64,000 bases of DNA from NCBI GenBank assembly GCA_965216325.1, contig OZ244160.1, positions 352,001 through 416,000 of the forward strand. The letters run 5' to 3'. The notes under the pieces were generated by a model. The model worked only from the letters and a program-made list of their open reading frames with translations. It made no database searches and was not told the DNA's origin. The position numbers were made by a program, and so were the translations under genes. Source of the DNA: Coraliomargarita sp. Lineage in GTDB: Bacteria; Verrucomicrobiota; Verrucomicrobiia; Opitutales; Coraliomargaritaceae. Below, one piece after another: positions 4,956 to 28,813 of the stretch. Numbering within the stretch: the first letter of the stretch is position 1; each line of letters starts with the position of its first letter.

Positions 4956-5000
4956 GGCATTCCTCCTTATAACGTTTTAATGTTTATACTTTGAAGCTGC

Positions 5001-6929
5001 TTACTTAATGCCCAGGTGTACTTCGGCGAATTGAAGACCAGAGGACTTTTTCACGGATTCTGTAATCAGAAGTTTGTATGTGCTGAATGCCTGGCCAGTG
5101 GCTAGTTTGAAATCACGTGCTTGAAGGCGGGAGGTGAACTGCTCATCCGTACGTTTATCCAGCGACGTCCAGTTTTTTCCATCATTTGAGCCCAAAAGCT
5201 CCCATGACTTCGGATCGCGCTCAGGCATGTCATTGCCACTGACAATGGTGTATGTTGTTGCTGTCAGTGACGACCCTTTTAATGAGAAAACAAAGGAGGC
5301 CGGAAATGTGGGGTTGCCATGGTAATATTTGGTGCCGTAGTTCCCGTCCACCAGTGTCTCTGGTCTGTGTTTGCCTTCAGTGTTTGCACTGGCAGTAACC
5401 GACGCATCCAGTCTTGGTTTTGATGATTTTGTGGCAGCATTCTTATGCCCTTTATTCGCAGCCCAATGGCTCGTCAATTTGTCAGCGGATCCTTTGTTTT
5501 GTGACTCCCAAGTAACCAGTTTACCGGGCTTATCAACATCGAGTGGATCTCCCATCTCTTTCTGAAGTTCAACAAATTCTCTCTTTAACTCCTGTATCTT
5601 TGTGGCGTACTCAGGGTTATCGATTAAATCATTCATCTCAGCCGGATCGTTCTTAATGTTGAACAGGCGCATTTTCTTTGCGGCATGTGGATAGAAGATA
5701 AGTTTCCAGTTATCCTTCAGAATCATGCGCTGAGAGTTCATGTACTTGCCATAAATTCTATCGTACTGAACCGTCTTCTCTCCCTTGATCAAAGGCATCA
5801 GACTTTTGAATTCCACATGGTCCGGTTTTTCGACACCAGCAATCTCAATTGCTGTAGCCATCGCATCCTGAAGGTAGATAGGCGTATCAATTTTGGAATC
5901 TGGTTTTATTCCCGGTCCGACAATAATAAAGGGAGGACGCATCGAGTGTTCATACATACTCTGTTTGCCCATCAAACCGTGATGGCCTGCCGCCAGACCG
6001 TGGTCCGCAGTAAAGATAATGTAGGTGTTGTCCGCTTTTCCACTCGCTTCCAAAGCATCCAGCATGCGCCCGATATGGTGATCCATATAGGTGATTGATG
6101 CATAGTACTCCTGACGGTTGCGCTTTACCGCATACTCCGTTCGAGGATAGGGTGCCAGAACTTCGTCTCGTAGTTTTTTTCCGCAAATCTCTGCTGCATA
6201 CGGGTACTCAGGCATATAGTTCTCCGGGATTTTGATAGAATCAAGCGGGTACATATCCACATACTCTTTTGGAGCCTGACGCGGGTCGTGCGGAGCATTA
6301 AAGGCCAGGTACATGAAGAAGGGCTTGTCATCATTCTTGACCTTGTCAAAGAACGTAAGGGTATTATCGGCCACCACCTGAGTCCAGTGGGTCCCCCCTC
6401 TCCAAAACCCTTGCTGTCTTTTGTCCCAGGGCAACCACTCGCTCTCATAGAGCTCCGGCTTAAAGGTACGCTTGTAGCGTGCAGGTGTCTGGTTCGGCAT
6501 ACCACCACGTACATCCTTCTTTACGTCAAAACGCGGGTTAGCGTGTACGTGCCATTTACCTGTCATGTACGTGGTATAGCCGGCGCTATTCATGATTTGA
6601 GACCAGTGCGGGTACTGTTTGACACCTTTCTCGGCCCGGTTAACAAAGCGGCCCGAGTTGAGCATGGCCCGGCTGGCAACACATACTGCTCCGTCCCAAG
6701 CTCCCATATTATAGGTATGGGTAAACGACACCCCACGTTTCACCAAACGGTCAAGATTCGGCGTTTTTATATTCAATTGTCCGTACGCACCGATCGATTC
6801 ATAGGTCTGATCATCGGCAAAGATGAACATCACGTTGGGCTTTTCCGCAGCACCTTCCGCGGCTGACAACTGACCGGCAAAGGCCAGTGCTGCTGCCGTT
6901 AGGATGGTTTTTATTTTTTGGGTGATCAT
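5001..6929 (-). CDS. Secreted S1 sulfatase with C-terminal F5/8 type C (discoidin-like) domain; shared leader
   Basis: PNVMFIFADD, CVASR, GKWH, ADHG; C-terminal DGNYGTKY...DPKSWELLGSNDGKNW. Confidence 0.92.
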   Translation of the reverse strand: MITQKIKTILTAAALAFAGQLSAAEGAAEKPNVMFIFADDQTYESIGAYGQLNIKTPNLDRLVKRGVSFTHTYNMGAWDGAVCVASRAMLNSGRFVNRAEKGVKQYPHWSQIMNSAGYTTYMTGKWHVHANPRFDVKKDVRGGMPNQTPARYKRTFKPELYESEWLPWDKRQQGFWRGGTHWTQVVADNTLTFFDKVKNDDKPFFMYLAFNAPHDPRQAPKEYVDMYPLDSIKIPENYMPEYPYAAEICGKKLRDEVLAPYPRTEYAVKRNRQEYYASITYMDHHIGRMLDALEASGKADNTYIIFTADHGLAAGHHGLMGKQSMYEHSMRPPFIIVGPGIKPDSKIDTPIYLQDAMATAIEIAGVEKPDHVEFKSLMPLIKGEKTVQYDRIYGKYMNSQRMILKDNWKLIFYPHAAKKMRLFNIKNDPAEMNDLIDNPEYATKIQELKREFVELQKEMGDPLDVDKPGKLVTWESQNKGSADKLTSHWAANKGHKNAATKSSKPRLDASVTASANTEGKHRPETLVDGNYGTKYYHGNPTFPASFVFSLKGSSLTATTYTIVSGNDMPERDPKSWELLGSNDGKNWTSLDKRTDEQFTSRLQARDFKLATGQAFSTYKLLITESVKKSSGLQFAEVHLGIK

Positions 6930-7016
6930 TTTATGCTCCTTTGTTAACTTTTTTTCGCCCGCGTTTATCTGCTATTCAGATGTGGACTATTTTTTCCACT
7001 TAACTTTCTTATCAAA
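6930..7016 (-). repeat. Type-A spacer repeat with orphan CBM6 gene end (FDKKVKWKK*)
   Basis: Homologous to about 13545-13627, 21105-21168, 23547-23626 and 25945-26022. Confidence 0.85.
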
Positions 7017-7194
7017 ACAAGGCCTGTCCGCTTTGTTTTTACTCAATTTATTAAAATTTAAAATTGCCGGGTAACTTATTGTTAATGTTCCAGCTTTTGC
7101 GAAATTTTATTTTAACATGAAGGCTCGTTTCACTCGCTCGGTATTCGCCTTCAAATGCTTTTACTTCTTTTTACTGTTCTTCTTGCCCATTTTC

Positions 7195-9009
7195 TTATCT
7201 GTTGGTCTTTGAATGACAGATATCATCGTGCGTGAAATCGGCCAACGGCAGTCCAAGCCCTTCACGAGTTTGCCATCCTCTCTTATCCCCAGTGTAGATA
7301 TCACAATTGAGAACATATGCATATTTTGCAGCCTGACGTTTTCCGTTGACGACAAATCCAGTACGCAGTTCATTAGCAACACCTTTTTTAAGCGATACTT
7401 TAAATGTCACCTCTTTTGCCCCTTCCGGGATAGCAATTTCCTGTTTGTTTCCGGCAAAGTCGATGTATGCTTTGTCTGCTCCAAGTGCTTTTCCACTGTA
7501 TTTAGCATTGATCGCCTGATCTGCTTCCGCAGCCCAGCGACGGATTGAGACTTCGTAATTACCATCGATAAGAACATCAACCATCCATGGAGCATCGACA
7601 GTTGGTTTGCTTGGAATATGAGTTTGATTCCAGCAAGGCAATCCTTTCGGCACCATATGGTCATGCGATGTAAGTACAGTTGGATTCTGTTCCTTTGCTC
7701 CCAATGCGACACTGCTGAAAATATGGTGTTCCTTGGACACATCAGACCAGAACGACTCATACTGTCCACGCATCATATTAAACACTTCTGGGAACTTCTG
7801 AGCAACATCATTTTTCTGCATCGGATCATTTTTGATATCGAACAACTGTTTTCCATTAACTAGACGCCACTTGTCGGTCATCACCGATGATTGCCTCCAT
7901 TTTCGAGGAGTTACGACACGCTGTGATTCCACAACGAGAGAACGATTACGAAGAGAGTTTTTATCACCGTAAATTATATTCTTAATGCTTGTCCCATCGA
8001 ACTTTACTGACGGTGCTTTAAGATCCAGCATATCAATAAATGTTGGTAGAATATCAAGGTGTGCAGTTAGCTGATTCACATCTTTACCACCACCAATTTT
8101 ACCTTCCGGCCAACGCATGAACCACGGCACACGGTGCCCACCTTCGTACTGAGAACCTTTTCCGCCACGCATACCCCCAGAGTTATAGCGTGCCCCAGCC
8201 GAGCTTCCGTTATCTGTTGTATACACAAGAATCGTGTTCTCCTCAATTCCTTCAGCTTTAAGCATTTCGCGCAGTGCTCCAAAGTTATCGTCAATATTGG
8301 TGATCATCCCGTAAAAACCTTCTGGAGTTTTAGTGTGATTGTACATATCCAGATATTTCTGGGGAGCGCGCATTGGTCCATGCGGAGCATTCGGTGCAAT
8401 ATAGGCAAAAAACGGCTTACCGCTTTCTTTACTCTGTTTAATAAATTTCTTCGCTTCGCCGAACCAGTTATCAGTACAGAATCCTTCAAACTTTTTAAAT
8501 TCACCATTAACATAATAGGTATCGTTAAAGTAATCATTCCCCCAGAAATCTGGAGTCTGCCCCACTCCGCCACCACCGTGCATTGCCACATAGGTGAATC
8601 CACGGTCTTCAGGACGATATGGGAACGCGTCTCCAAGATGCCATTTGCCGAATAAACCTGTCTCGTAGCCATTTTCAGAAAATACATTTGCCATTGTGAC
8701 TTCACGTGTACGCAGCATGTTGCGGCCAAGAACTGTATGCCATACTCCAACGCGGCCTGAATAACGTCCCGTCATAAGAGCAGAACGAGTCGGTGCACAT
8801 GTCGGATCCACGTGGTAGTTTGTCAATCGCACACTGTCTGTGTAGAACGAATCAATATTCGGTGTTTTTATCATATCATTCCCATGACACCCCATATCAC
8901 CATATCCCTGATCATCGGTGAGAACGATAATTACATTCGGCTTATCAGCTGCAGTTGCAGCGCACCCCAATATGCCTAACCCCAAAAGCCCTAAACAATG
9001 TTTGTTCAT
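7195..9009 (-). CDS. Secreted arylsulfatase (S1)
   Basis: PNVIIVLTDDQGYGD, CAPTRSALMTGR, GKWHLG, TDNG, YEGGHRVP. Confidence 0.93.
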   Translation of the reverse strand: MNKHCLGLLGLGILGCAATAADKPNVIIVLTDDQGYGDMGCHGNDMIKTPNIDSFYTDSVRLTNYHVDPTCAPTRSALMTGRYSGRVGVWHTVLGRNMLRTREVTMANVFSENGYETGLFGKWHLGDAFPYRPEDRGFTYVAMHGGGGVGQTPDFWGNDYFNDTYYVNGEFKKFEGFCTDNWFGEAKKFIKQSKESGKPFFAYIAPNAPHGPMRAPQKYLDMYNHTKTPEGFYGMITNIDDNFGALREMLKAEGIEENTILVYTTDNGSSAGARYNSGGMRGGKGSQYEGGHRVPWFMRWPEGKIGGGKDVNQLTAHLDILPTFIDMLDLKAPSVKFDGTSIKNIIYGDKNSLRNRSLVVESQRVVTPRKWRQSSVMTDKWRLVNGKQLFDIKNDPMQKNDVAQKFPEVFNMMRGQYESFWSDVSKEHHIFSSVALGAKEQNPTVLTSHDHMVPKGLPCWNQTHIPSKPTVDAPWMVDVLIDGNYEVSIRRWAAEADQAINAKYSGKALGADKAYIDFAGNKQEIAIPEGAKEVTFKVSLKKGVANELRTGFVVNGKRQAAKYAYVLNCDIYTGDKRGWQTREGLGLPLADFTHDDICHSKTNR

Positions 9010-9044
9010 ATTACATACTCCCTTATTTGTTAACTTTTTTCGAT

Positions 9045-9636
9045 TGATGTGCCCTGAGATTGTTGGACAGAGGATTCCGTTATTTTGATGTTTGGTGTTT
9101 ATGGACTAGTTGTAGTTGATGCAAGCCGTTAGGCTTGTGTTAATGCCCCCCATGGGGGGCGCGGATTTTTCCTCGAACTGAATCGGGTTTTTATAGCCCA
9201 GCGAGGAGTGTTTCCGGAAGCGGTTATAGAACACTTCGATATACTCGAAGGCGTTGCTGCGGGCCGCATTTTCGTCGAAGAAGACTTCATCGCCGACTGT
9301 CGATGTCTTGTATCGACCATAGAAGGATTCCTGAGCGGCATTGTCATAGCAGTTGCCTTTAGCGCTCATGCTCTGCTCGATTCCGAAGCACTTCAACATG
9401 GCTTCGTAATCGTAGCTGGCATACGTGCTTCCACGGTCACTGTGATGGATCAGTCCCTTTGGCAGTTCGCCGCCGCGGGTCAGCACGGCAGCCTGTAGCG
9501 CTTGGCAAACCAACTTTGAGTCATTGCGCGAAGAGACACTCCAGCCAATGATCCGGCGACTATACAGGTCCATTACTGTGGCCAGATAACACCAGCCATG
9601 TTGCACCCGAAGATAGGTCGTGTCCGCAACCCAGAC
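9045..9636 (-). mobile_element. IS3-family right-half remnant, inverted relative to the copy at 36511-37833
   Basis: IR TGATGTGCCCTGAGATTGTTGGACA at 9045; near-identical to the DDE region of the full copy; breaks at 9636 against IS1380 sequence. Confidence 0.92.
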
Positions 9637-10831
9637 GGGGCGGAAGCCTTGCTGCAGATCAACCGTGAGTTCATTGTCTGGGCGATGGATCGCATTGTGC
9701 CCGGGCGGCTCTTGCATGGTGGAGAACTCGAGTGGTTTTTCGACGACACGCAATTGGAGGTGACTGGCAAGTGCTTCGAATCAGCGGTGATCAACTACGA
9801 GGGCAATACGACTTTGTCCTGCAGACGCTGTGGGTTGGGCCGTTTCTGGCCTGCGGTTGGCTGGGCAAAGGCAGTCGCGATTGCAGCGAACTTTTGCCCG
9901 AACAGTTGGAGCAATGCGAAGCCCTGCTTGGCAGCTACAAGAGTTACCTGTATGCAGACAGTGGGTCCAGTGCCGGGGTCTATCTCAACAAACTGGGCGA
10001 AACAGTGGATCGTTTCAGCGTCAGTTACAACAAGTGGACTGAAGGACCGGAGCGCTGCGCCAAAGAGTTGCCGGAGTCGGCGTGGAGCGACGAGCAGATC
10101 GTGCGTTGGCGCGATGGCAAAGAACACCGTGCCCAGCACGCTTGGCTGCGCTATCAGCCGGAGGGCTGCGAGCAGCCACAGCTCTTTGCGGTGACGCGTC
10201 ACCAACTGGCCGATGAGGAACTGTTCGGGCGCTATGCCTTCATCTGCTGTGAGTCGGGGCGTGAGGGGCGCGCCGATATGGCCGTGGAGCGGCACAAGCT
10301 CAAAGGCGACCGGGAGCGCCAGTTCTCACAAGTGCTCACCGACATGGATTTGCACCATCCCCCATGCAAGAGTCTGGCAGCCAATCAGGTCTTCTATGCA
10401 ATCGGCGCGCTCGCGCACAACCTGCTCCAAGCGATCAAACTGATTCACCTGCCCGACCACGAGCAGCCCATACGTATCCGCACCCTGCTGCATGTGCTCA
10501 TGCTCATCCCTGTAACCTTCAAGCGCCATGCCCGTCAGCTCAAAGCAGTGTGCTGTGTGAACAGCCGTTGGCTGCCATGGTGGCGCAAGTTTGCCCACGA
10601 ACTAGACGCACTCTCGGCGCTCTACAAGTTGCGCCCCTCGCCAGGCTGATGCCGATCAAATTGCCCCGATACCCCTACGCGGACGCTGAGCCGCTCGCAC
10701 TACCAATCCGCCCGAATCCCGTAACCCGAAGCAGGTATCACGATCCGAACTACCCGTTCGGATGCGCCAGCTTGCGCGAAACGAACAAAACACTCTACAC
10801 AGAGAAAACTTTTACACTGCTAAGGATCGGG
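9637..10831 (+). mobile_element. IS1380-family remnant (5'-truncated, frameshifted transposase)
   Basis: FFDDTQLEVTGK...INYEG, frameshift near 9820, then YLYADSGS, HKLKGDRERQF, AANQVF...LAHNL; putative end ...AAGGATCGGG. Confidence 0.8.
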
Positions 10832-10844
10832 GCGTATTTTTCCC

Positions 10845-13541
10845 TCATTGCTTTAAGATTTTGATATAATCAATATTCATACAGTATACCGAAGCAGATT
10901 CCGCTTTTAGTTCTACCTTGTTCACACCAGCTTTTAGCGTAATTGACTCTGAATGATCTTCCCACTTGCCCCAATCTCCGGTGCGTTTACAGTGAAGCGT
11001 TTTTATCTTTTCACCATTTATGTGGAGAGCGACAGATTTACTATCCCCACTGCCAGACGCATATCTCAGAGTCATAGTATGGGTGCCAGCCTTTGATGCC
11101 TTAACAGTAAAGGTCATATTTCCCCGGGTCGTGTTGTAAAAACCCTCGACAAAACCTGTTCCGGAGTAACCAGCGTGATTGTTAGCAGTGCTACATTCAT
11201 CCAATTTTGCATATTCAGCCTCATAAACACCGCTTTTTTCAGCCCTTTCTATTTCTATCAGAGAGACATCGATGTACTGACCTCCGCCTGCGTTCTGGCA
11301 ATGAACAGCCAAGGTGTTTTGGCCCTTTTTGAGCGCCGCCTGGGCTTCGGGCGAGATTTTAACAACCTTGTATTCAGTCGTATAACCAACAAGCTTTGCG
11401 GCCTGTACACCATTGATATAGACAGTTGCGTCCTCATCCCAAAACGCATCGAGCATAAGTGATCCCTCTCCCGGATCAAAGCTGAAAGAACTCCTTATCC
11501 AGATGTTTGGCGTGGTCCACTCGGTTTTGATGAAAGTACCTGGAGTATTTCTACTCCCGATTCCGGCAGGACCCTCAGTCCAGTTGTTTGCTGTGAACTC
11601 AGGATTCATCCAATTTTTAGCCGGCTTCGTTGTCGTATAGCGCACGGGAACTTTGTTGGCTTTGGCGCGTTTGATGACGTACTTGCGAGGCACCACTTTT
11701 TTATAGAGCGGCGCGTGAATTTCCTTCAGGGTTTCGGCCGGAATCTTGATGACCTTGCGGTCATAACTCATCAGGCCGTTGATCTCCAGTTCAACATCAG
11801 ATGTTTGTGTATAGATCCCACCGGCAACACCGCTGCGTTTGAGGTCGAGTAGACGCCTGGCCGACTCTTTATATCGGTCAAGAAGTTCGTTCAGACTTTT
11901 AGGCACCGAGCCGTAGCTGTATGGTCTTCCTTTTGAAGTCCAACGGTTTTCTTTTGGCACAAAAAAGCCGTGTCCGCCATATTCACCGACAACCTTAATG
12001 TAATCATCGAAGCGGGGATCTTCGGTAGGGAATTTAGGATGAGGATACTGGTGATGATCGGCCACATCGCCGACAGGCCAGAAGTTTCCTCCGCTTGCAC
12101 CATTCACCAGACGGCTGGGATCATAATCGACAGTCCATTGGACCACCTTCATCGTCCTGTGCTGCGCCCATCCTTCATTGAACGGGACCCAGGACACGAT
12201 GCTCGGGTAATTGTATAAATAGTCGATCATTTCCTTGAGTTCATACATAAACTGTTGGTGAGCAGCTTCCGGCCAGTTGGGCTCGGTTGGATTCGGTTCC
12301 AAATGGGAATTCCACTTGGCATGAGGTGATCCCGAGACCTGATCCTGCCAGACCATCATGCCGACCTTGTCGCAGTGGGCGTAATAACGGCGCGGACGGA
12401 CCTTGATGTGATTGCGAATACAGTTGAATCCGGCCGCCTTGAGGTAATCGATATCGAAACGCATAGCCTCGTCTGACGCAGGGGTCAACAGCCCATCGGG
12501 AAACCAGCCCTGATCCAAAGGCCCGAGGTGGAAAATTTCCTTTCCGTTGAGGGTAAAGCGCCAGTTGCCAGCCTCGTCCTGCATCTTGCCAACGGTGCGC
12601 AGTCCCGTGTATGACTCAACGGTATCAACGGAGTCCTTACCAGAAAGAAGTTCAACCTTTAGCTCATACAGGTGCGGGGTGTCCGGTGTCCACAGCTTAG
12701 CGTCTTTGATGGGAAGGACTGTATTTTCAAGAGAGCCCGTGGCCGAGGCCACCTCTTTGCCCTCATAGAATGCCGTCACCTTCACACTGGAGGCTTTAAC
12801 CGCGGCGTCATTAATAAATGTCTTTACCGAGATGGCAGCGGGTGCAATTGTTGTATCAATCTTAATGCGCTTGATGTAGGTCTGCGGTACGGATTCCAAC
12901 CATACAGTCTGCCAGATACCCGATACGCGAGTGTACCATATGCCATGTGGTCTGCGTGACTGCTTACCTAATAGCTGGTATTTTTCGGTTTCGTCGATGA
13001 CCTTAACGGAGATTGTATTCTCGCCTTCGATAGCGGCATCGGTAATGTCAAAGGAGAAGGGGGTGTTGCCGCCCTTGTGGGTTCCAACCAAGGTACCGTT
13101 GACCCAGGCCGTGCACTCATAGTCTACCGCTTCAAAATGCAGGAGATGACGATGGTCCTTTTTCTTTAAATCGAATGTCCGCTGATACCACAGTTCTTCA
13201 CTAGGTTCGAGAAGGCGTTGTACTCCGGAAAGGCTCGACTCAATGCAGAACGGCACCAAGATATCGCCATTCCATTTATCGGGAGCACTGCTACTCGCAT
13301 GCTTAGAGCGCTTTAAGACGGCGTACTGCCATAGTCCGTTAAGATTCTGCCAGTTCTCGCGAACCATCTGCGGACGTGGGTACTCCTGCCAGACATTCTC
13401 CGGCGTCACCGATTCAGCAAATTTCGTTTTGATATTATCACCTGCCGGTTTCCAATCTGTGGTAGTTTCAGCGGCTGATACTTGACCGGCAAAGGCCAGT
13501 GCAGCTACCGCGAAGATGTTTTTTATTTTTTTTGTGATCGT
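10845..13541 (-). CDS. GH2 glycoside hydrolase with C-terminal CBM35-like module; start codon is ACG
   Basis: WQNLNGLW, LHFEAVD, SGIWQTVWLE, WVPFNEGW, GEYGG; tail VYEAEYAKL...GYSGTGFV; frame open up to the shared leader, which begins ACG at 13541. Confidence 0.88.
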   Translation of the reverse strand, partial: TITKKIKNIFAVAALAFAGQVSAAETTTDWKPAGDNIKTKFAESVTPENVWQEYPRPQMVRENWQNLNGLWQYAVLKRSKHASSSAPDKWNGDILVPFCIESSLSGVQRLLEPSEELWYQRTFDLKKKDHRHLLHFEAVDYECTAWVNGTLVGTHKGGNTPFSFDITDAAIEGENTISVKVIDETEKYQLLGKQSRRPHGIWYTRVSGIWQTVWLESVPQTYIKRIKIDTTIAPAAISVKTFINDAAVKASSVKVTAFYEGKEVASATGSLENTVLPIKDAKLWTPDTPHLYELKVELLSGKDSVDTVESYTGLRTVGKMQDEAGNWRFTLNGKEIFHLGPLDQGWFPDGLLTPASDEAMRFDIDYLKAAGFNCIRNHIKVRPRRYYAHCDKVGMMVWQDQVSGSPHAKWNSHLEPNPTEPNWPEAAHQQFMYELKEMIDYLYNYPSIVSWVPFNEGWAQHRTMKVVQWTVDYDPSRLVNGASGGNFWPVGDVADHHQYPHPKFPTEDPRFDDYIKVVGEYGGHGFFVPKENRWTSKGRPYSYGSVPKSLNELLDRYKESARRLLDLKRSGVAGGIYTQTSDVELEINGLMSYDRKVIKIPAETLKEIHAPLYKKVVPRKYVIKRAKANKVPVRYTTTKPAKNWMNPEFTANNWTEGPAGIGSRNTPGTFIKTEWTTPNIWIRSSFSFDPGEGSLMLDAFWDEDATVYINGVQAAKLVGYTTEYKVVKISPEAQAALKKGQNTLAVHCQNAGGGQYIDVSLIEIERAEKSGVYEAEYAKLDECSTANNHAGYSGTGFVEGFYNTTRGNMTFTVKASKAGTHTMTLRYASGSGDSKSVALHINGEKIKTLHCKRTGDWGKWEDHSESITLKAGVNKVELKAESASVYCMNIDYIKILKQ

Positions 13542-15947: not shown

Positions 15948-15986
15948 GCTATATCCTTTTATTATTTTTCTCGAACGCTACTGAAA

Positions 15987-17801: not shown

Positions 17802-19126
17802 TATTTATTCTTACCAGATTGGCCGTTGTCGGCCTGTTGTTTCATCCAGACCGCGAGCTGCTCGCGCATCTCCTTGAGAACTTGTTCGTACTCTGGATTA
17901 TGAACTAAGTTATTCTGTTCGTAAGGATCTTTATCAATGGCAAACAGCATCTCTTTCGGGGGAGTGATTATATCGTCCATAGTACTCTTTGCCTTAGAGT
18001 CTGTTTCCGCCAGTGCGTGCCACGACGCTAAGGTTTCTTTGGGACCTGTCTTGCCCCAGGCTTTGCAGGAAAACTTTGCTCCGGGCTTTGTGTTCAAAAT
18101 GTATTTGTACTTTTTCGAACGCACACTGCGTAGAGGAACTCCGGGGTTGGTCTGAATGCCGTAGGTCCATTGTGCGTGCTCCTTCTTCGTGCCCTTAAGC
18201 ACATCGGCAAAACTGAAACCGTCAAAACCACGTCCGCCGTCGGCTGCACCATCCCGTCCCGTATCGATAACCTTTGGATCTCCGCCAGCAAGCTCGACCA
18301 GGGTCGGTACCACATCCACATAGCGCACCATAGCATCGGTAACCGTTCCGGCTTGAACCTGTCCGGGCCAGCGGGCAATCAATGCCGTGCGCAGTCCCAT
18401 ATCGTAACAAGTCCATTTTGCGCGAGGAAAGGCGGAGCCCTGCTCACTGGTAAATAGAACGAGCGTATCCTGATCCTTATTCGTCGCTTTAAGGGTATCG
18501 AGAAGTCCCTTAACCTGCTTGTCCAGGGCAGAGATCTCCTTGTAATACATACTTAGTGCAGTACGGGTCTCTGGTGTATCCAACAGGTAGGGCGGTATCG
18601 TAAAGCTCGCGGGGTCATAGGAAATATTCTTTCCCTCAGTCCAGGGTAAATGCGGATTGTGTGAGCAGAAGATGTAGGCAAACGGTTTCTCTCCTTCACA
18701 AAGTTTCTTGAGAGATGCGTTTTTAAAAGGGAACGATGTCTTTGGCCCGAAGTGTGTCTTTCCCTGCAGCGCTACGGTGTAGCCCAAGGCCTCCAGATGA
18801 TGCACGACGCTCTTGGTTCCCGGGTGGACTTTGGTATGGTTGGCAACGGCTCCGTTGCGTTTAGGGAAAAGACCGGTATAAAGCTGCTGTCGGGTGGGCG
18901 CACACATGGCTGTGGCAGTGAAACAGTGGGTAAAACGCTTCCCTTCCTTCGCCAGAGCATCCAGAGTCGGTGTTTTGACATCTTGATTCCCGTAACAACC
19001 AACATCGGCCCAGCTCATGTCATCGGCAACGATCAATACAATGTTGGGTTTATTACCTGCTGACAACTGACCGGCAAAGGCTAGTGCAACTACCGTGAGC
19101 ATGATTTTTAGTTTTTGGGTGATCAT
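17801..19126 (-). CDS. Secreted S1 sulfatase; shared leader
   Basis: PNIVLIVADD, CAPTR, GKTH, SEQG, AKWTCYD. Confidence 0.92.
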   Translation of the reverse strand: MITQKLKIMLTVVALAFAGQLSAGNKPNIVLIVADDMSWADVGCYGNQDVKTPTLDALAKEGKRFTHCFTATAMCAPTRQQLYTGLFPKRNGAVANHTKVHPGTKSVVHHLEALGYTVALQGKTHFGPKTSFPFKNASLKKLCEGEKPFAYIFCSHNPHLPWTEGKNISYDPASFTIPPYLLDTPETRTALSMYYKEISALDKQVKGLLDTLKATNKDQDTLVLFTSEQGSAFPRAKWTCYDMGLRTALIARWPGQVQAGTVTDAMVRYVDVVPTLVELAGGDPKVIDTGRDGAADGGRGFDGFSFADVLKGTKKEHAQWTYGIQTNPGVPLRSVRSKKYKYILNTKPGAKFSCKAWGKTGPKETLASWHALAETDSKAKSTMDDIITPPKEMLFAIDKDPYEQNNLVHNPEYEQVLKEMREQLAVWMKQQADNGQSGKNK

Positions 19127-19166
19127 GCTATATCCTTTTATTCACTTTTTTCGATCGCTGCTGAAA

Positions 19167-21098: not shown

Positions 21099-21171
21099 GG
21101 TGTTTCCCTTTATTAAATGTTTCTCGCTCGCATCTATCTGCTATTCAGAAGCGGACTATTTCTTCCACATT

Positions 21172-21197
21172 GATCCGCGCGCTGACGCGCACGGATC
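21172..21197 (-). other. GC-rich stem-loop downstream of GH2 copy B
   Basis: GATCCGTGCGC-GTCA-GCGCGCGGATC on the minus strand, 11-bp stem with one G-U pair. Confidence 0.55.
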
Positions 21198-21236
21198 GTT
21201 TATGCGATCACTTCGTGTCTTTATCTTCTGTGGGTA

Positions 21237-23540
21237 TTATTCTGCATCTTCATATACCAGAGAGACATCGATGTACTGACCACCGCCTGCGTTCTGGCAA
21301 TGAACAGCCAAGGTGTTTTGGCCCTTTTTGAGCGCCGCCTGGGCTTCGGGCGAGATTTTAACATCCTTGTATCCAGTCGTATAACCAACAAGCTTTGCGG
21401 CCTGTACGCCATTGATATAGACAGTTGCGTCCTCATCCCAAAACGCATCGAGCATCAGTGATCCCTCTCCCGGATCAAAGCTGAAAGAACTCCTTATCCA
21501 GATGTTTGGCGTGGTCCACTCGGTTTTGATGAAAGTACCTGGAGTATTTCTACTCCCGATTCCGGCAGGACCCTCAGTCCAGTTGTTTGCTGTGAACTCA
21601 GGATTCATCCAATTTTTAGCCGGCTTCGTTGTCGTATAGCGCACGGGAACTTTGTTGGCTTTGGCGCGTTTGATGACGTACTTGCGAGGCACCACTTTTT
21701 TATAGAGCGGCGCGTGAATTTCCTTCAGGGTTTCGGCCGGAATCTTGATGATCTTGCGGTCATAACTCATCAGGCCGTTGATCTCCAGTTCAACATCAGA
21801 TGTTTGTGTATAGATCCCACCGGCAACACCGCTGCGTTTGAGGTCGAGTAGACGCCTGGCCGACTCTTTATATCGGTCAAGAAGTTCGTTCAGACTTTTA
21901 GGCACCGAGCCGTAGCTGTATGGTCTTCCTTTTGAAGTCCAACGGTTTTCTTTTGGCACAAAAAAGCCGTGTCCGCCATATTCACCGACAACCTTAATGT
22001 AATCATCGAAGCGGGGATCTTCGGTAGGGAATTTAGGATGAGGATACTGGTGATGATCGGCCACATCGCCGACAGGCCAGAAGTTTCCTCCGCTTGCACC
22101 ATTCACCAGACGGCTGGGATCATAATCGACAGTCCATTGGACCACCTTCATCGTCCTGTGCTGCGCCCATCCTTCATTGAACGGGACCCAGGACACGATG
22201 CTCGGGTAATTGTATAAATAGTCGATCATTTCCTTGAGTTCATACATAAACTGTTGGTGAGCAGCTTCCGGCCAGTTGGGCTCGGTTGGATTCGGTTCCA
22301 AATGGGAATTCCACTTGGCATGAGGTGATCCCGAGACCTGATCCTGCCAGACCATCATGCCGACCTTGTCGCAGTGGGCGTAATAACGGCGCGGACGGAC
22401 CTTGATGTGATTGCGAATGCAGTTGAATCCGGCTGCCTTCAGGTAATCGATATCGAAACGCATAGCCTCGTCTGACGCAGGGGTCAGCAGCCCATCGGGA
22501 AACCAGCCCTGATCCAAAGGCCCGAGGTGGAAAATTTCCTTTCCGTTGAGGGTAAAGCGCCAGTTGCCAGCCTCGTCCTGCATCTTACCAACGGTGCGCA
22601 GTCCCGTGTATGACTCAACGGTATCAATGGAGTCCTTACCAGAAAGAAGTTCAACCTTTAGCTCATACAGGTGCGGGGTGTCCGGTGTCCACAGCTTAGC
22701 GTCTTTGATGGGAAGGACTGTATTTTCAAGAGAGCCCGTAGCCGACGCAACCTCTTTGCCCTCATAGAATGCCGTCACCTTCACACTGGAGGCTTTAACC
22801 GCGGCGTCATTAATAAATGTCTTTACCGAGATGGCAGCGGGTGCAATTGTTGTATCAATCTTAATGCGCTTGATGTAGGTCTGCGGTACGGATTCCAACC
22901 ATACAGTCTGCCAGATACCCGATACGCGAGTGTACCATATGCCATGTGGTCTGCGTGACTGCTTACCTAATAGCTGGTATTTTTCGGTTTCGTCGATGAC
23001 CTTAACGGAGATTGTATTCTCGCCTTCGATAGCGGCATCGGTAATGTCAAAGGAGAAGGGGGTGTTGCCGCCCTTGTGGGTTCCAACCAAGGTACCGTTG
23101 ACCCAGGCCGTGCACTCATAGTCTACCGCTTCAAAATGCAGGAGATGACGATGGTCCTTTTTCTTTAAATCGAATGTCCGCTGATACCACAGTTCTTCAC
23201 TAGGTTCGAGAAGGCGTTGTACTCCGGAAAGGCTCGACTCAATGCAGAACGGCACCAAGATATTGCCATTCCATTTATCGGGAGCACTGCTACTCGCATG
23301 CTTAGAGCGCTTTAAGACGGCGTACTGCCATAGTCCGTTAAGATTCTGCCAGTTCTCGCGAACCATCTGCGGACGTGGGTACTCCTGCCAGACATTCTCA
23401 GGCGTCACCGATTCAGCAAATTTCGTTTTGATATTATCACCTGCCGGTTTCCAATCTGTGGTAGTTTCAGCGGCTGATACTTGACCGGCAAAGGCCAGGG
23501 CAGCTATCGTGCCTAATGTTTTTACTCTTTTTTTGATCAT
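21237..23540 (-). CDS. GH2 glycoside hydrolase, copy B, lacking the CBM35-like tail
   Basis: Near-identical to 10845-13541 up to IDVSL, then ends VYEDAE*. Confidence 0.92.
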   Translation of the reverse strand: MIKKRVKTLGTIAALAFAGQVSAAETTTDWKPAGDNIKTKFAESVTPENVWQEYPRPQMVRENWQNLNGLWQYAVLKRSKHASSSAPDKWNGNILVPFCIESSLSGVQRLLEPSEELWYQRTFDLKKKDHRHLLHFEAVDYECTAWVNGTLVGTHKGGNTPFSFDITDAAIEGENTISVKVIDETEKYQLLGKQSRRPHGIWYTRVSGIWQTVWLESVPQTYIKRIKIDTTIAPAAISVKTFINDAAVKASSVKVTAFYEGKEVASATGSLENTVLPIKDAKLWTPDTPHLYELKVELLSGKDSIDTVESYTGLRTVGKMQDEAGNWRFTLNGKEIFHLGPLDQGWFPDGLLTPASDEAMRFDIDYLKAAGFNCIRNHIKVRPRRYYAHCDKVGMMVWQDQVSGSPHAKWNSHLEPNPTEPNWPEAAHQQFMYELKEMIDYLYNYPSIVSWVPFNEGWAQHRTMKVVQWTVDYDPSRLVNGASGGNFWPVGDVADHHQYPHPKFPTEDPRFDDYIKVVGEYGGHGFFVPKENRWTSKGRPYSYGSVPKSLNELLDRYKESARRLLDLKRSGVAGGIYTQTSDVELEINGLMSYDRKIIKIPAETLKEIHAPLYKKVVPRKYVIKRAKANKVPVRYTTTKPAKNWMNPEFTANNWTEGPAGIGSRNTPGTFIKTEWTTPNIWIRSSFSFDPGEGSLMLDAFWDEDATVYINGVQAAKLVGYTTGYKDVKISPEAQAALKKGQNTLAVHCQNAGGGQYIDVSLVYEDAE

Positions 23541-25937
23541 GCTATATCCCTTTATTAAATGTTTCTCGCTCGCATCTATCTGCTATTCAGAAGCGGACTA
23601 TTTCTTCCACTCAACTTTCTTATCAAACTCAAACCAATCCAGGTTAAACATGCCGCTCCCTTGCCCGGTAAAGACCAGGTAGAGATCCTGCTTGCCGCTC
23701 AGGCCGCTTACCTCGCAGGACATCTCATCCCAGAAACCCCAGTTTCCAGTAGGTTTCACGCGACAGGAACCGAGCAGTTTACCGCTTGCACTACCCAGCC
23801 TCAGCTCAATGGTGCCGCCATTTTTGTTGCCGCATGCTACCCGAGCCGTAAACGTTTTGATTCCCTCAGGGAACTCCATGCCCTCGAACATAATCCAGTG
23901 ACCGTTGTCGATATATCCAAGGTGATGCCCAGAACCTGAGCTTTCTTTTTTCGTGCCGGAATTTCTTGTGTACGCCTCTGCCTGGACGCCGGAAATAGGC
24001 TTTGGTTTATAGACGGGGAAATACACATTCTTCTCAGGAGAACCCGCACGGTTCAACCATCCCCCTTTTGAAGCGGCATAGTTATCGATTTTTCCGCGCA
24101 AGGCATCGTAGCCGGCAGGTTTTGTTTTCGAGACGACGATATCCTTTATGATATTGGTTTTGTTTTTACTATTATTGTTGAGCCAGAGATCTGTTTGATT
24201 GGTCCAGAATATGCAATTTCTATACGTATTCTTGTAGGTGTCATCATCCAGATGCAGGCAGTGTGATTGGTCAGCACCCACGTTGAGAGCTTTGCCCACA
24301 TTATACTGCCATAGGGTATCCAGTCCGGCTTCCCAGCTGTAGAGAGCGCCACCATCTCTCATCCTGGTCATCCAGTCTTCCAGGATGTTATACTCAACAA
24401 GATTATTGCTGGAGTGGAGTTTGGGAATCTTTGATGCGAGACCATAGGGCCGGTCTTTTTTCAGCTCATCCCAGCGTGCCTGGTACATGGCCTGCTTGTT
24501 GCCGTAGGAATCGGTTGTATCCACTCGTTTCGGATCATTCATCTGGTCGGGCTTCATGCCGATGATGGAAACTGCCGCGTAGGGCATCTCTTTGAACCAG
24601 TTATACCTAACCTTGTTATTATGGCTGCCATATATTTGGACTGGATTGGAGTGCATGTAATCGAGCCCCATGTGGTGGATATAGTTTCGCTCAATCAGGT
24701 GACTGTGGTTGAGATCGACATCTCCCGGGCCATAACCGGTAATACTGACTCCGCCTGAATTGTTGTACGCGATCTCATTGCCTGTAATAAATACTCTCTG
24801 CGCATAGTGATCCAGAGCTATTCCCTGAGATCCGGAGTTGGCGATCACACAGCTGTCAATCACAATATCCCGTACACCCTGGAGGAATATCATCGCATCC
24901 GAGCTCTCCCCATTTCGCGTGAGCCATTTCGGGTCGTACTCATGTTCACGGGTAAAATCACTGTACCTGAATACCAGATTGCGCAGCTCCACATGGTGCA
25001 CCTGCTGCTTCCACGCCTGCTCCTCTTCGTCTCCCTGAAAGCGGACGAGTTCACTCAATGAGGGAGAAAACGTCTTCTTGCCATCCATGGTGCCGTCTGC
25101 AGGCCAGTAATAGATCTTACCCGCAGCTGAATCCACCACATATTCATTCTCTGAATCCAGCAGTGGGATCGCATTGCGCAAGTTGTACCAACCACCGCCA
25201 TACAGCCTTATGTTACGGTATTGCACCGTTATATCGCTGTGCAGTCGTGCCGTACTCTTTTCCGGATCGATATCGCTCAACGTACCTATGATGTTCCACC
25301 AGACGGCGGTGGTCATAACGATTTCGGCATCATCGTTCCTGGGAAAGTTCTTAAGCGCTCCGGCAGGAAACCGCAACAATCGTCCTTTTACGGCTTCAGG
25401 GTGGCCACCGCTCAATCGGGGCCATTTCTTGAAGAATGTCCGGACCTGCGCCTGGGCGATCTGCTGTCTCACACCGTTCACAAAGAGATATTGCGGACGC
25501 CAGCCTTTCTCAATGCTCGCCTCGAAAACCTTACCCTTGGCAAGCTCCGGCAGCCCCGCCGGGTAGTCACTTACTTTCTTCCAGCCGGTGATGTATTTCT
25601 TGCTGGTGATTCGGGCTGTTTCTTTGGGATAGGAGCGGTATACCACAGGCTTTCCCTCTTCGCCGGAATCCTGAGGGGTCAGAATAAAGGTTTCGCTTAG
25701 ATTGTATTCGCCCTCGCGCAGATAGACCGTGAAGCCACCCGCGGGCAGCGGATTCGTCTTGCGGTACGCTCGAATCGCATCGCGCGACTTGGCAAGGGTC
25801 AGGAATGGCTTGGCTTCGGTGCCCGGGTTTGTGTCTTTTCCGTCCGGGGCGACGTAGAACGTTTCGCCGGCGAACAACTGACCGGCAAAGGTCAGTGCAG
25901 CTACCGTGAGGGGCTTCATTAATTTTTGGGTGATCAT
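21258..25937 (-). repeat. About 4.7-kb duplicated block, copy B
   Basis: Aligns to 11259-15947. Confidence 0.95.
23598..25937 (-). CDS. Right-handed beta-helix protein (GH141-like) with CBM6, copy B
   Basis: Paralog of 13599-15947; DGGALYS and LHLDDD motifs. Confidence 0.8.
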   Translation of the reverse strand: MITQKLMKPLTVAALTFAGQLFAGETFYVAPDGKDTNPGTEAKPFLTLAKSRDAIRAYRKTNPLPAGGFTVYLREGEYNLSETFILTPQDSGEEGKPVVYRSYPKETARITSKKYITGWKKVSDYPAGLPELAKGKVFEASIEKGWRPQYLFVNGVRQQIAQAQVRTFFKKWPRLSGGHPEAVKGRLLRFPAGALKNFPRNDDAEIVMTTAVWWNIIGTLSDIDPEKSTARLHSDITVQYRNIRLYGGGWYNLRNAIPLLDSENEYVVDSAAGKIYYWPADGTMDGKKTFSPSLSELVRFQGDEEEQAWKQQVHHVELRNLVFRYSDFTREHEYDPKWLTRNGESSDAMIFLQGVRDIVIDSCVIANSGSQGIALDHYAQRVFITGNEIAYNNSGGVSITGYGPGDVDLNHSHLIERNYIHHMGLDYMHSNPVQIYGSHNNKVRYNWFKEMPYAAVSIIGMKPDQMNDPKRVDTTDSYGNKQAMYQARWDELKKDRPYGLASKIPKLHSSNNLVEYNILEDWMTRMRDGGALYSWEAGLDTLWQYNVGKALNVGADQSHCLHLDDDTYKNTYRNCIFWTNQTDLWLNNNSKNKTNIIKDIVVSKTKPAGYDALRGKIDNYAASKGGWLNRAGSPEKNVYFPVYKPKPISGVQAEAYTRNSGTKKESSGSGHHLGYIDNGHWIMFEGMEFPEGIKTFTARVACGNKNGGTIELRLGSASGKLLGSCRVKPTGNWGFWDEMSCEVSGLSGKQDLYLVFTGQGSGMFNLDWFEFDKKVEWKK

Positions 25938-25993
25938 AGTAGATCCTTTATTAAATGTTTCTCGCCCGCGTTTATCTGATATTCAGAAGCGGA

Positions 25994-28813
25994 CTATTTC
26001 TTCCACTCAACTTTCTTATCAAACTCAAACCAATCCAGGTTAAACATGCCGCCCCCTTGTCCGGTAAAGACCAGGTAGAGATCCTGCTTGCCGCTCAGGC
26101 CGCTTACCTCGCTGGACATCTCCTCCCAGTTAGCCCATCCTCCAGTAGGTTTCACGCGACAGGAGCCGAGCAGTGTGCCGCTTTTACTACCCAATCTCAA
26201 CTCAATGGTGCCGCCATTGTTATTGCCGCATGATGCGTGAGCCGTAAACTTTTTGATTCCCTCAGGGAACTCCATGCCCTCGAACATAATCCAGTGACCG
26301 TTGTCGATATATCCGATATGGTCACTTTGATCGTTGCTTTCAATAACCATTCCCTTGGATTTCTTACTAAATGTTTCCGCCTCAATTCGGTCGGCAACAG
26401 CTTCCGGGGAGGGGGTGAATCTCTCAAGCATCTCTTTTTGTATCGCAGCAGCGGAGGCATGAGGACTTTTGACTCCCGAATAGATCACCAGGTCGTCGCT
26501 TTTATCAATGCCATTGCTGGAGACTGTTGCGGTAACGACAACCCGACCTGTGCCCTTCAGAGTCACCAATCCTTTACTGTCAATTGACGCTATGGCAGGG
26601 GCGCTACTAGTGTAGGTGAGTTTGGCAGATGAGAGATCGGCCTCATACCATTTTTCCGTCTTGCCGCTTATACTTGTCTGCAGCGTGTCACCGGGCTTGG
26701 CTTCCAGGTATGTATCATGACCTTTGCCCTTAAGGAACACACGGTGCAGTTTGCCATTCTTTGGTGAAAAGGAGAAACTTTTGAGCAGGCCGACTTTACT
26801 GGTATCAATGGATCTCATCCCCATCGCCAAAGCAGGAGAGTTCTCTTTTAGACGGTAATCACGTTCTTTGGCGTTGATAAAATGCGGGTCCGTCATCTTA
26901 CTGTTTTGGTCGGCATTTTTTTTCTTTGTCGCATCCTGCCAGGCGCTTAGTGAACTTCCCCCTTTTGGAAAGTTAAATTTTCCCTGCTTGTTAAAGTAGA
27001 TGTTGTAGTCCATCTCACCAAGGGATCTGATATCTTTAAAGCGGAAGGTAAGGCGGTCTGCTCCGTTACCATGCACACCTCCATCGCCATGGACTTTTTG
27101 TGCATGATCGCTGTAGATGATATTGTTATAGAAGAACAGCTTTCTCGCTGGTTCAATATAATGGGAGAGGTTAGCTGCTCCGTGTTCAGACAAACTTGCA
27201 TCAAATACATTATTATAAATCAGATTATCAACGCCTTTTGACATGAGCTGAGCATTGACTGCTGGTGTCTTCGTGTCATAGACAATATTATTCCTGATTG
27301 TCCAGTAATCAGAACCATCGTCCAGAAAGATACTATGTCCGCGCCATCCGCCCTTGGGGCTTCCCGTGTAAGCGTTTATGATGATGTTGTTGTCAACGAC
27401 ATTACCACGGCCTCCTCCCCAACACTCGATACCCCCGCCATCGGCAGAATCGGCGCCAAGGTCATACATGTAGTTGTAGCGAAATATATTTTTGTTGGAG
27501 TGTATATATTTATCCCAGTCAGAAAACTTCACGTGTCCCAAGCCCACAGTATTGCGTACGCCATAACGGGCTCCTTTCAGCGAGATCCCATAACGTCGTG
27601 ACTGATGAATGAGGTTGTGTTCGATAATATTCTCAGCGCTCTGATAAATCTGCACACCTGTTGCGTGATTCACAGTTGCCATGATATTAGAGATTTCATT
27701 ATTGCTGATGATGTTGCCTTTATTGATCACTTCGGTGTTGTCTTTATGAAGCAGTAGGCCGGCTAGGTAGACTCCGCTGTAACCGAGGTTTGTCATTTTA
27801 CAGCCGGATACCGTGTTGTTCTGTGCCCAACCGTACAGGGAGACTGCGTGGAGGGGGGCATCATGGAGATCGCAGTCAAGAACCTGAATATTCTTGGCGT
27901 TTTCCATCAGGATAAGCGACGTACGCAGCGTTTCCGGGTAGTCGGCATTTTGACGTTCATACCCATCAATTGTTGTTCCACTGTAACAGGGCATGCTGGC
28001 ATTAAAGTCAGTTAAGAGTATTTCCAGTCCCTGGATTTTTATGTTGCTGACTGGCTGCTTGCCACTTTCACCCTTGAACGTAAAGACGCTCTTGGCCGTT
28101 GGCCGGATCACAGCATCCAGTTCTTTTTTGTTTTTGGGATAGTAGTAGAGATATCCGGCATCAGAATTGACCGCCCATTCTCCAGGTTCATTGATAAACT
28201 CAACATCGCCGCTGTAGTGACGTAATCCTCCGCTGAATTTGCTTTTGGGATAATCGCTGACAGGCTGGTTCTTGTCATTCAACTTGATTTTAAGGTATTC
28301 AGACATCCATGCGCCTTGATAGTAGGCCTGAACGTTGCGGATCGACTTCGGCTGCTTCCATTTGTTTTCCTTAGCGATTGAGGCAAGCTTCCCATCGACA
28401 AGTAAAGACCAAAACTCAATGTCTTTACCAATGTTGGCTTTCATGATGCCGTCTTTATACGGCTCCCAGTTTGTTACGGGCACCCCACCAATGATGACAG
28501 GTTTTTCATCCTTGTAGTTCCGGTACGTGATATACTGGCCGTCTGGGCCGCTGTCACGGTGATCAAAACGGATGCTCTCTTTGATGTGGTACACGCCACC
28601 TCGTATGTTCACGACGACGGATTCTTTTGAATCTTTATTGAGCTTCCTCACCGCATCCCGGGCCTGGGTTATGGTGGCAAAGGGGCTCTTTAGGGTTCCC
28701 GAGTTTGTGTCTTTTCCGTCCGGGGCGACGTAGAATGTTTCGGCGGCTGATAATTGACCGGCAAAGGCCAGGGCAGCGATCGTGAAGATGGTTTTTATTT
28801 TGTGGGTGATCAT
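25994..28813 (-). CDS. Right-handed beta-helix protein (GH141-like) with Ig-like (Big_2) domain and CBM6
   Basis: FYVAPDG..., DGGGIECW, IFLDDGS; YTSSAPAIASIDSKGLVT Ig-like segment; same CBM6 tail. Confidence 0.8.
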   Translation of the reverse strand: MITHKIKTIFTIAALAFAGQLSAAETFYVAPDGKDTNSGTLKSPFATITQARDAVRKLNKDSKESVVVNIRGGVYHIKESIRFDHRDSGPDGQYITYRNYKDEKPVIIGGVPVTNWEPYKDGIMKANIGKDIEFWSLLVDGKLASIAKENKWKQPKSIRNVQAYYQGAWMSEYLKIKLNDKNQPVSDYPKSKFSGGLRHYSGDVEFINEPGEWAVNSDAGYLYYYPKNKKELDAVIRPTAKSVFTFKGESGKQPVSNIKIQGLEILLTDFNASMPCYSGTTIDGYERQNADYPETLRTSLILMENAKNIQVLDCDLHDAPLHAVSLYGWAQNNTVSGCKMTNLGYSGVYLAGLLLHKDNTEVINKGNIISNNEISNIMATVNHATGVQIYQSAENIIEHNLIHQSRRYGISLKGARYGVRNTVGLGHVKFSDWDKYIHSNKNIFRYNYMYDLGADSADGGGIECWGGGRGNVVDNNIIINAYTGSPKGGWRGHSIFLDDGSDYWTIRNNIVYDTKTPAVNAQLMSKGVDNLIYNNVFDASLSEHGAANLSHYIEPARKLFFYNNIIYSDHAQKVHGDGGVHGNGADRLTFRFKDIRSLGEMDYNIYFNKQGKFNFPKGGSSLSAWQDATKKKNADQNSKMTDPHFINAKERDYRLKENSPALAMGMRSIDTSKVGLLKSFSFSPKNGKLHRVFLKGKGHDTYLEAKPGDTLQTSISGKTEKWYEADLSSAKLTYTSSAPAIASIDSKGLVTLKGTGRVVVTATVSSNGIDKSDDLVIYSGVKSPHASAAAIQKEMLERFTPSPEAVADRIEAETFSKKSKGMVIESNDQSDHIGYIDNGHWIMFEGMEFPEGIKKFTAHASCGNNNGGTIELRLGSKSGTLLGSCRVKPTGGWANWEEMSSEVSGLSGKQDLYLVFTGQGGGMFNLDWFEFDKKVEWKK

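Follow-up and report, generated by a model that had tools for sequence, protein, structure and literature searches.

A common export-signal module heads unrelated enzyme genes in a glycan-degradation island of Coraliomargarita sp. and may have spread by recombination

We analyzed a 64,000-nucleotide stretch of the Coraliomargarita sp. genome (GenBank assembly GCA_965216325.1, contig OZ244160.1, positions 352,001 to 416,000), hereafter the window, in which eight minus-strand genes of unrelated families begin with copies of one 69-bp leader encoding a signal peptide. The leader turns out to be the coding part of a longer repeated module that is confined to a single island of glycan-degradation genes, and gene order changes at this module between genomes. 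The explanation that we favor, and consider likely, is that an ordinary Sec signal module was spread by recombination onto unrelated genes and is in effect a recombination handle.

The 10-mer CCTTTGCCGG from the leader occurs nine times in the window, against 0.16 occurrences expected and a largest count of 2 among 100 shuffles. Eight of the nine sites lie at an equal offset, at the 5′ ends of the minus-strand genes starting at 6929, 13541, 15947, 19126, 21098, 23540, 25937, and 28813. The remaining site, at 59790, lies outside any leader. The eight 69-nt leaders align without a gap and encode MITQKIKTILTAAALAFAGQLSA-like peptides. By Pfam, the bodies behind them are three sulfatases, two glycoside hydrolases of family 2 (GH2), and three right-handed beta-helix proteins with a family 6 carbohydrate-binding module (CBM6), so the observation of the first-pass annotation, that genes of unrelated families share an indel-free 69-bp leader, was correct. 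All on the minus strand, the leaders sit at 6861-6929 on sulfatase A (gene 5001-6929, a sulfatase with an F5/8 type C domain), at 13473-13541 on a GH2 gene with CBM6 (frame open over 10845-13541, with an ACG start), at 15879-15947 on the beta-helix and CBM6 gene 13599-15947, at 19058-19126 on sulfatase B (17801-19126), at 21030-21098 on sulfatase C (19167-21098), at 23472-23540 on a GH2 gene without CBM6 (21237-23540), at 25869-25937 on the beta-helix and CBM6 gene 23598-25937, and at 28745-28813 on a long beta-helix and CBM6 gene (25994-28813). Each assignment combines the leader profile with Pfam, and the first two also the alignment. Two further sulfatases inside the array, identified from translation and Pfam (7195-9009 and 15987-17801, minus strand), carry other signal peptides.

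Outside the leader, sulfatases A, B, and C are 28% identical in pairwise comparison. The short and long beta-helix proteins have cores that are 25% identical, CBM6 domains that are 78% identical, and near-identical first 40 residues. The peptide GQLFAGE is present both on sulfatase C (21098) and on the beta-helix protein at 25937, as had been described before. Equally, the two GH2 genes do have near-identical bodies behind leaders with different N-terminal halves: they differ at 13 of 42 positions in nt 1-42 versus 18 of 2244 in nt 43-2286 (Fisher p 6e-16), an abrupt switch from 69% to 99.2% identity. The 10-mer had been reported as invariant. This holds for the eight leaders of the window and for 9 of the 10 copies in the Coraliomargarita genome; the tenth, a stop-bearing copy near 431100, differs, and the 10-mer varies in three of the nine copies of Lentisphaera marina IMCC 11369, a bacterium that carries a related locus.

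The homology does not stop at the start codon. In pairs of genes with unrelated bodies, the leader alignment spans about −13/−30 to +64/+77 at 72-93% identity, and the shared unit runs from an A-rich ribosome-site box (AAGGA, then TATAGC/TATAAC; AAGGA(T)ATA(A/G)C is common to the copies) through the end of the signal peptide. Because the homology extends into noncoding DNA, we conclude, in agreement with the first-pass annotation, that each leader is a copy of a single DNA module; all of them appear to descend from one DNA sequence. Judging from these alignments, the module joins a predicted export signal to a ribosome-binding region and measures about 100 bp (roughly −25 to +75). Upstream homology is longer (64-527 nt) where the 3′ ends of the upstream genes are related. 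With a CBM6 end upstream (...VEWKK stop), its limits are −70 to −87 and −378; with a C-terminal domain of about 140 amino acids, common to two sulfatases, they are −527 to −1973. Relic upstream pieces also precede 21098 and 6929, though the gene now lying upstream has no such domain. The unit of homology is therefore the gene junction, moved together with scraps of former neighbors. The domain of about 140 residues itself (KVAAKLDWSKVKVGDVYASK...KLLKLEVK), which no Pfam model covers, closes sulfatase 15987-17801 and sulfatase C (window positions 15987-16400 and 19167-19600); these two genes share their 3′ junction, and one class of repeated junction includes the 3′ end of the domain.

Comparison with other genomes revealed traces of grafting. 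Two pairs of orthologs with 91-93% identical bodies have unrelated leaders. In the first, sulfatase B and its counterpart in the metagenome-assembled genome (MAG) of an “Opitutia bacterium” are near-identical from the mature KPNIVLIVADD on, with unrelated leader and spacer; an ortholog of sulfatase B in a metagenome (L110) carries the module leader. In the second, the family 95 glycoside hydrolase (GH95) of L. marina has the module, and the Coraliomargarita GH95, whose body is 91% identical in nucleotides, has another signal peptide; homology between the two begins about 100-125 nt into the gene. A GH95-like gene of 924 amino acids in L. marina consists of the leader and ETFDVAPDG, whose DNA is that of the mature beta-helix start, followed by GH95 sequence, which is what a deletion fusion would leave. 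Some leaders are chimeric: in the GH29 gene of L. marina, spacer and leader resemble the module to about nt 53 and then differ. Among the 120 best homologues of GH2, a motif search over all 120 found the leader in only one, the closest (88% identity). In the 39 of the 119 others whose N termini were read, none more than 66% identical, the signals are diverse and unrelated, and a conserved WKPAGD follows most of them.

Gene order differs between the genomes at the module, with breakpoints in it or beside it, as had been anticipated for a recombination handle. Synteny blocks between the Coraliomargarita and L. marina loci end at −87, −24, −5, −1, +52, +84, +91, and +183 from the leader start, and further breakpoints lie at −70, about +75, and about +100, giving an overall range of −87 to +183. 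Several breakpoints fall at nt 42-55, beside an inverted repeat at leader nt 44-59, (C)TGGCC-TTTGCC-GGCC(A/G) (for example at 15889-15904): the switch in the GH2 pair at 42/43, L. marina GH95 at 51, GH29 at 53, and a second copy of sulfatase A at 55. Furthermore, a perfect 64-bp direct repeat brackets a 2442-bp unit that holds the GH2 gene starting at 23540. One copy (21105-21168, minus strand), made of a relic CBM6 3′ end (VEWKK stop), spacer, and ribosome site, lies upstream of sulfatase C, and the other (23547-23610, minus strand) lies upstream of this GH2 gene. We compared Logan contigs from 4 of 24 sequencing runs with the window; two metagenome runs, each from a different study (X5 and X9), contain contigs in which 21106 is joined directly to 23549, so that the GH2 gene appears to be missing. 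Of the earlier proposal of a portable unit and recombination handle, the association of the module with changes of gene order thus stands. A precise cassette system is not what we see, given the scatter from −87 to +183, the relics that travel along, and the lack of a tyrosine recombinase within 64 kb.

Leaders and bodies have had different histories. The L. marina leaders of sulfatase C and sulfatase A share 68 of their 69 nucleotides and head bodies of different types; the leaders of the long beta-helix orthologs are 74% identical on bodies that are 93% identical. Nearest-neighbor leaders are often found on different bodies, and leader trees disagree with body trees, an incongruence for which the first-pass annotation had proposed a test. 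It had also taken identity at synonymous sites as special conservation, which we do not find: among 12 same-family pairs, 10 show lower conservation in the leader than in the body, and third codon positions of the leader fare no better. A strong synonymous-site constraint on CCTTTGCCGG was accordingly rejected. Mean leader identity is 0.80-0.82 within genomes versus 0.79 between them (permutation p 0.014), and orthologous leaders are 0.74-0.90 identical. From these values the module would date from about the time at which the three islands (those of Coraliomargarita, L. marina, and the MAG) separated, or from before it, with some later exchange.

The module is rare and clustered. In the 3.06-Mb one-contig genome, a nucleotide profile of the leader (nhmmer) found nine strong copies and one weak copy. 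The strong ones are the eight of the window and one just outside it at 427879; the weak one lies at about 431100. A broader model (R1), built from 21 junctions, found 10 copies in this genome, nine in a single L. marina locus, and one in the Opitutia MAG, near the end of a contig. A wider occurrence in the genome and among relatives was not borne out. Among 40 relatives, 24 of them from the same family and three from the same genus, none has a true leader, and two pattern matches found there are not leaders. Another 150 genomes of the phylum gave no strong match and no array; 12 of them have one weak match each, of 20-34 bits, and the best five, which we inspected, are ordinary signal peptides. 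A pattern scan over 185,579 species, with one genome each, returned 12 stretches, of which four are true leaders, three in L. marina and one in the MAG. Among at least 119 loci listed in a pattern scan of metagenomes, true leaders occur in two (L110 and L121), along with two weak look-alikes. Residues 1-40 searched against 5.8 billion proteins gave five matches, all metagenomic. A genome-wide self-BLAST revealed no second family of short repeats on equivalent start codons of open reading frames (ORFs) of at least 200 amino acids.

Two copies in the Coraliomargarita genome lie outside the window. The copy at 427879 consists of the leader and 183 nt of a sulfatase C-type gene, followed by unrelated DNA (genome 427879-428061; L032 11879-12061). 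This truncated remnant directly follows the GH95 gene, and L. marina has an intact gene at the same place. From leader nt 55 on, a second copy of sulfatase A (genome 431078-433142; L032 15078-17142) matches 5001-6929 at 96% identity; it has a divergent leader (MIKTLIFTVIALTMTG) with an in-frame TAG at the leader Gln codon.

In L. marina, nine consecutive genes bear the module. Their cargo is a PA14/beta-helix protein, three sulfatases of type A, one of them fused to GH43, a GH29, a sulfatase C, two GH95 enzymes, and a long beta-helix/CBM6 protein. The fusion of sulfatase A and GH43 is a single ORF of 811 amino acids behind a module leader (L028 11380-13815). Metagenomic cargo includes a fourth type of sulfatase (P0125) and a beta-helix/CBM35 protein with a shortened leader (P0124).

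The island around the module has itself moved between distant bacteria. At the DNA level, parts of window positions 4996-36513 (minus strand; the match is patchy, and its order differs) and of genome positions 425-436 kb match the L. marina locus at 85-94% identity, and 16582-21131 matches the terminal 4.3 kb of the MAG contig at 92-93%. Island proteins are 83-96% identical between the genomes; the best matches of flanking and housekeeping ORFs of L. marina and the MAG in the Coraliomargarita genome are 28-42% identical. By NCBI taxonomy, L. marina belongs to Lentisphaerota and Opitutia to Verrucomicrobiota, two phyla of the Planctomycetes-Verrucomicrobia-Chlamydiae (PVC) group. These figures demonstrate horizontal transfer of the island among distant marine PVC bacteria. 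The island also holds GH29, GH95, and GH31 enzymes, an AraC regulator, a major facilitator superfamily (MFS) transporter, and a conserved protein of 760 amino acids. The enzyme set suggests that its substrate is a sulfated, fucose-containing glycan. Insertion sequence (IS) elements lie within and beside the island, and a tRNA scan found no tRNA in the window.

The leader peptide looks like an ordinary signal. As read from the translations, it begins M-I-T-Q-K-I-K-T, continues with ILTVAALAFAG, and ends in QLSA/AE or QLFA/GE; that is, it has a Lys-rich n-region, a hydrophobic core, and an A-x-A-type end. None of the eight leaders has a Cys or a twin-arginine (RR) motif. We infer that it is an ordinary Sec-type export signal, probably cleaved by signal peptidase I. 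Spacers between most genes of the array are 39-138 nt long. A scan of 4000-23999 found 21 promoter-like sites versus 21.1 expected and 26 terminator-like sites versus 20.5 expected, both at chance level. Each gene of this long co-oriented array would be translated from its own ribosome site, and it is plausible that the module acts as an expression unit.

Taken together, we propose that recombination within the island repeatedly gave unrelated catalytic bodies this module as their 5′ end, through replacement of 5′ ends, deletion fusions, and unequal or Campbell-like crossovers. Otherwise unrelated neighbors would be alike only in the module and in the upstream 3′ ends of binding domains that adjoin it. 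Because homology exists only there, duplications, deletions, and replacements would break at the module, so that the genes stay intact and exportable. The process would involve neither a dedicated recombinase nor dedicated export machinery, and any benefit to the cell would be a ready-made start for translation and export. It is possible that the module was selected for its role in recombination or for expression.

Several observations weigh against this proposal. Homogenization within genomes is weak; because of this, most of the grafting would have taken place before the three islands separated, and ongoing exchange is unsupported. The metagenomic contig without GH2 is only 286 nt long, and no rearrangement was caught in progress. 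Joints between leaders in an isolate run, X2 (13527 to 15940, 15947 to 25944, and 21005 to 28737), were considered as rearrangements and rejected, since their sides are 21-75 nt long with extra letters between them; they may be repeats placed in the wrong copy. Identical runs between leaders of different genes are 11-27 nt long within +1 to +100, a length that is marginal for RecA-type recombination. A small hairpin in the leader, described below, is left without explanation. Finally, export, the cleavage site, and the operon structure were all read from sequence.

A stronger version of the proposal would make the module a selected cassette scaffold, an integrase-free junction of binding-domain 3′ end, spacer, ribosome site, and leader at which marine PVC bacteria would gain, lose, and swap genes for exo-enzymes through homologous recombination. 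Circular intermediates would be possible, new domains would become exportable by landing behind the module, the 64-bp repeats would be the footprint of a fresh insertion, and the island would spread enzyme sets across phyla. We regard this as unlikely, though it deserves more credence than any of the alternatives that follow.

Could selection on expression, rather than recombination, explain why the module is shared? According to this explanation, it is kept as a regulatory or translation element, in which the A-rich ribosome site and leader mRNA, perhaps with a hairpin, set translation or coupling gene by gene. The regions from −30 to +40 of seven leader genes are 64% A+T with a mean folding energy of −5.4 kcal/mol, values that are copies of one sequence and not independent; 600 sampled starts of long ORFs, a rough comparison in which the first ATG was taken, gave 53% A+T and −10.3 kcal/mol. 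Such an A+T-rich, weakly folded region is compatible with an open start of translation. Within the leader, RNAalifold predicts a single hairpin of 5 bp, TGGCC/GGCCA, with a consensus energy of −6.9 kcal/mol. Its middle pair is GU in 10 copies, GC in nine, and AU in one, a variation that preserves pairing, and the ribosome-site box is common to the copies. However, the hairpin is short and broken in some copies, third positions are not kept better than elsewhere, and orthologs manage without the module. Selection of this kind also cannot explain homologous DNA on unrelated genes; it adds to recombinational spread of the module more than it replaces it. As the explanation of the shared leader, we consider it improbable.

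An integron-like, site-specific cassette system, with the leader or the inverted repeat CTGGCC-N6-GGCCAG as its site, is very unlikely. The genes are co-oriented and their content differs in relatives, a perfect 64-bp repeat flanks one gene, and four breakpoints cluster at nt 42-55 beside the inverted repeat. Yet of the 10 genome matches to the tyrosine recombinase family PF00589, the nearest is at 287,956, 64 kb before the window (serine recombinases were outside this search). The only transposase-like genes of the array are IS remnants, and the hairpin is 5 bp. The other breakpoints (−87, −70, −24, −5, about +75, +84, about +100, and +183) do not fall at such a site, and relic 3′ ends travel with the module, which argues for imprecise homologous or illegitimate events.

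The first-pass annotation had offered as its own alternative that the leader addresses a dedicated route of export or sorting for this enzyme set. One conserved peptide does occur on enzymes for one substrate, and ALAFAGQ in the hydrophobic region is kept in most copies. The leader is nevertheless not used on many cargo proteins across the genome or the lineage: its 10 copies lie in one island, and neither the 40 relatives nor the 150 phylum genomes have an array. Two sulfatases of the array and the Coraliomargarita GH95 use other signals, as do orthologs with 91-93% identical bodies. The leader-bearing proteins match no signal-type model of Pfam or NCBIfam (including YSIRK, ESPR, KxYKxGKxW, Tat, and the like), and the similarity lies in DNA, noncoding DNA included. 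Besides, a cleaved Sec signal cannot guide steps beyond the inner membrane. We therefore set this alternative aside as highly improbable. Convergence or chance among ordinary signal peptides, for which weak single matches in 12 of the 150 phylum genomes, ordinary signal peptides similar in composition (for example MKKILTAAALAFACTLFAAQ), might speak, has practically no probability and is excluded by the noncoding homology, with indel-free leaders 72-93% identical in DNA that run on into untranslated spacer, a 10-mer present nine times versus 0.16 expected, and distant GH2 homologues that show the usual diversity of signals.

How does the module, spread by recombination as we propose, compare with known systems? 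The closest published analogue is the erp family of Borrelia burgdorferi (ospE/ospF/elp, with an “upstream homology box”), in which conserved upstream and leader DNA heads mature parts of independent origin and recombination is frequent (PMC10016077). The erp module comprises a promoter/operator, a lipoprotein leader, and sorting residues, resides at allelic sites on cp32 prophages, and serves surface adhesins (PMC10016077). Conserved upstream and leader DNA on unrelated mature parts is found here as well. Unlike erp, the Coraliomargarita module is an intra-operon spacer with a ribosome site and a nonlipoprotein Sec signal lacking Cys, with no promoter signal above chance, and it heads tandem catabolic enzymes in a chromosomal island common to different phyla. 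The earlier statement that no named system exists thus holds for loci of carbohydrate-active enzymes (CAZymes) and sulfatases, for which we found no description of the module or of shared leaders in the literature (supplements were outside the search); it does not hold against Borrelia erp as a close published analogue.

Partial gene conversion or concerted evolution, restricted to 5′ ends, would resemble our case in the sharp switch of identity in the GH2 pair and in the 68/69 leaders within L. marina. It differs in that the bodies here are not paralogs and homogenization across the genome is weak. Integron arrays likewise string together genes of unrelated function in one orientation, repeat an element at every boundary, and vary in content with the host. 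Here, however, there is no intI-type recombinase nearby and no attC, the repeat is at the 5′ coding end rather than the 3′ end, and breakpoints are imprecise. In the vlp/vsp lipoprotein families of Mycoplasma and in cone-snail toxin superfamilies, a conserved 5′ region and signal also precede divergent mature parts; those parts are variants within a single family, or small peptides on which diversifying selection acts, in other organisms and with other functions.

The array offers a case of how a repertoire of secreted enzymes for a recalcitrant marine glycan is assembled, with unrelated bodies behind one start for translation and export. This shared start marks the sites of gene gain, loss, and duplication. 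An island at 85-94% DNA identity in Lentisphaera and an Opitutia MAG attests to recent long-range transfer of glycan degradation among PVC bacteria. The module is a candidate portable secretion tag for groups that are hard to engineer, and a candidate marker for tracing the island in metagenomes.

Some features of the array and its surroundings remain to be described. The segment 10845-15947 (minus strand), with a beta-helix and a GH2 gene, is a segmental duplicate of 21237-25937 by DNA comparison. In its GH2 copy, ACG replaces the ATG of the seven relatives, and the ribosome site, with GAA for GG, is degenerate (window 13473-13571); the nearest canonical start is only a GTG at 13409. This copy may be decaying or a nonexported duplicate. 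It adjoins IS remnants at 9106-10649, on both strands, that interrupt the array: an ORF with an rve integrase core (9106-9753, minus strand) and a weak match to a DDE transposase (9732-10649, plus strand), which at 26.1 bits is under the Pfam cutoff of 34.7.

A second leader type (MKRISKLFPVVALFTGLSLCTTHAVDVI, MKRISKLF..., 28 codons) was considered as another case of unrelated bodies and rejected, since it heads two GH29 genes. It sits in a duplicated junction of 853 nt at 95.4% identity (genome 432576-433428 and 434966-435806; L032 16576-17428 and 18966-19806), made up of the 3′ end of a C-terminal domain, spacer, and leader; the mature N termini of the two GH29 proteins differ.

Directly upstream of the array lies the gene for the 760-amino-acid protein (window 28815-31097), which has no signal peptide and no Pfam or NCBIfam match and is 90% identical in L. 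marina. The MFS transporter genes of the two islands (window 31097-32608 and L028 16766-18148) are unlike at the DNA level and lie on opposite sides of the 760-amino-acid gene, which points to replacement or independent insertion. Just past the end of the L. marina homology (about 36513), an IS3-type transposase and a 5′-truncated sulfatase occupy 36852-38718, a possible edge of the island. Farther on, an ORF of 1314 amino acids without a Pfam match (42966-46910) adjoins an ISL3 transposase (46953-48191).

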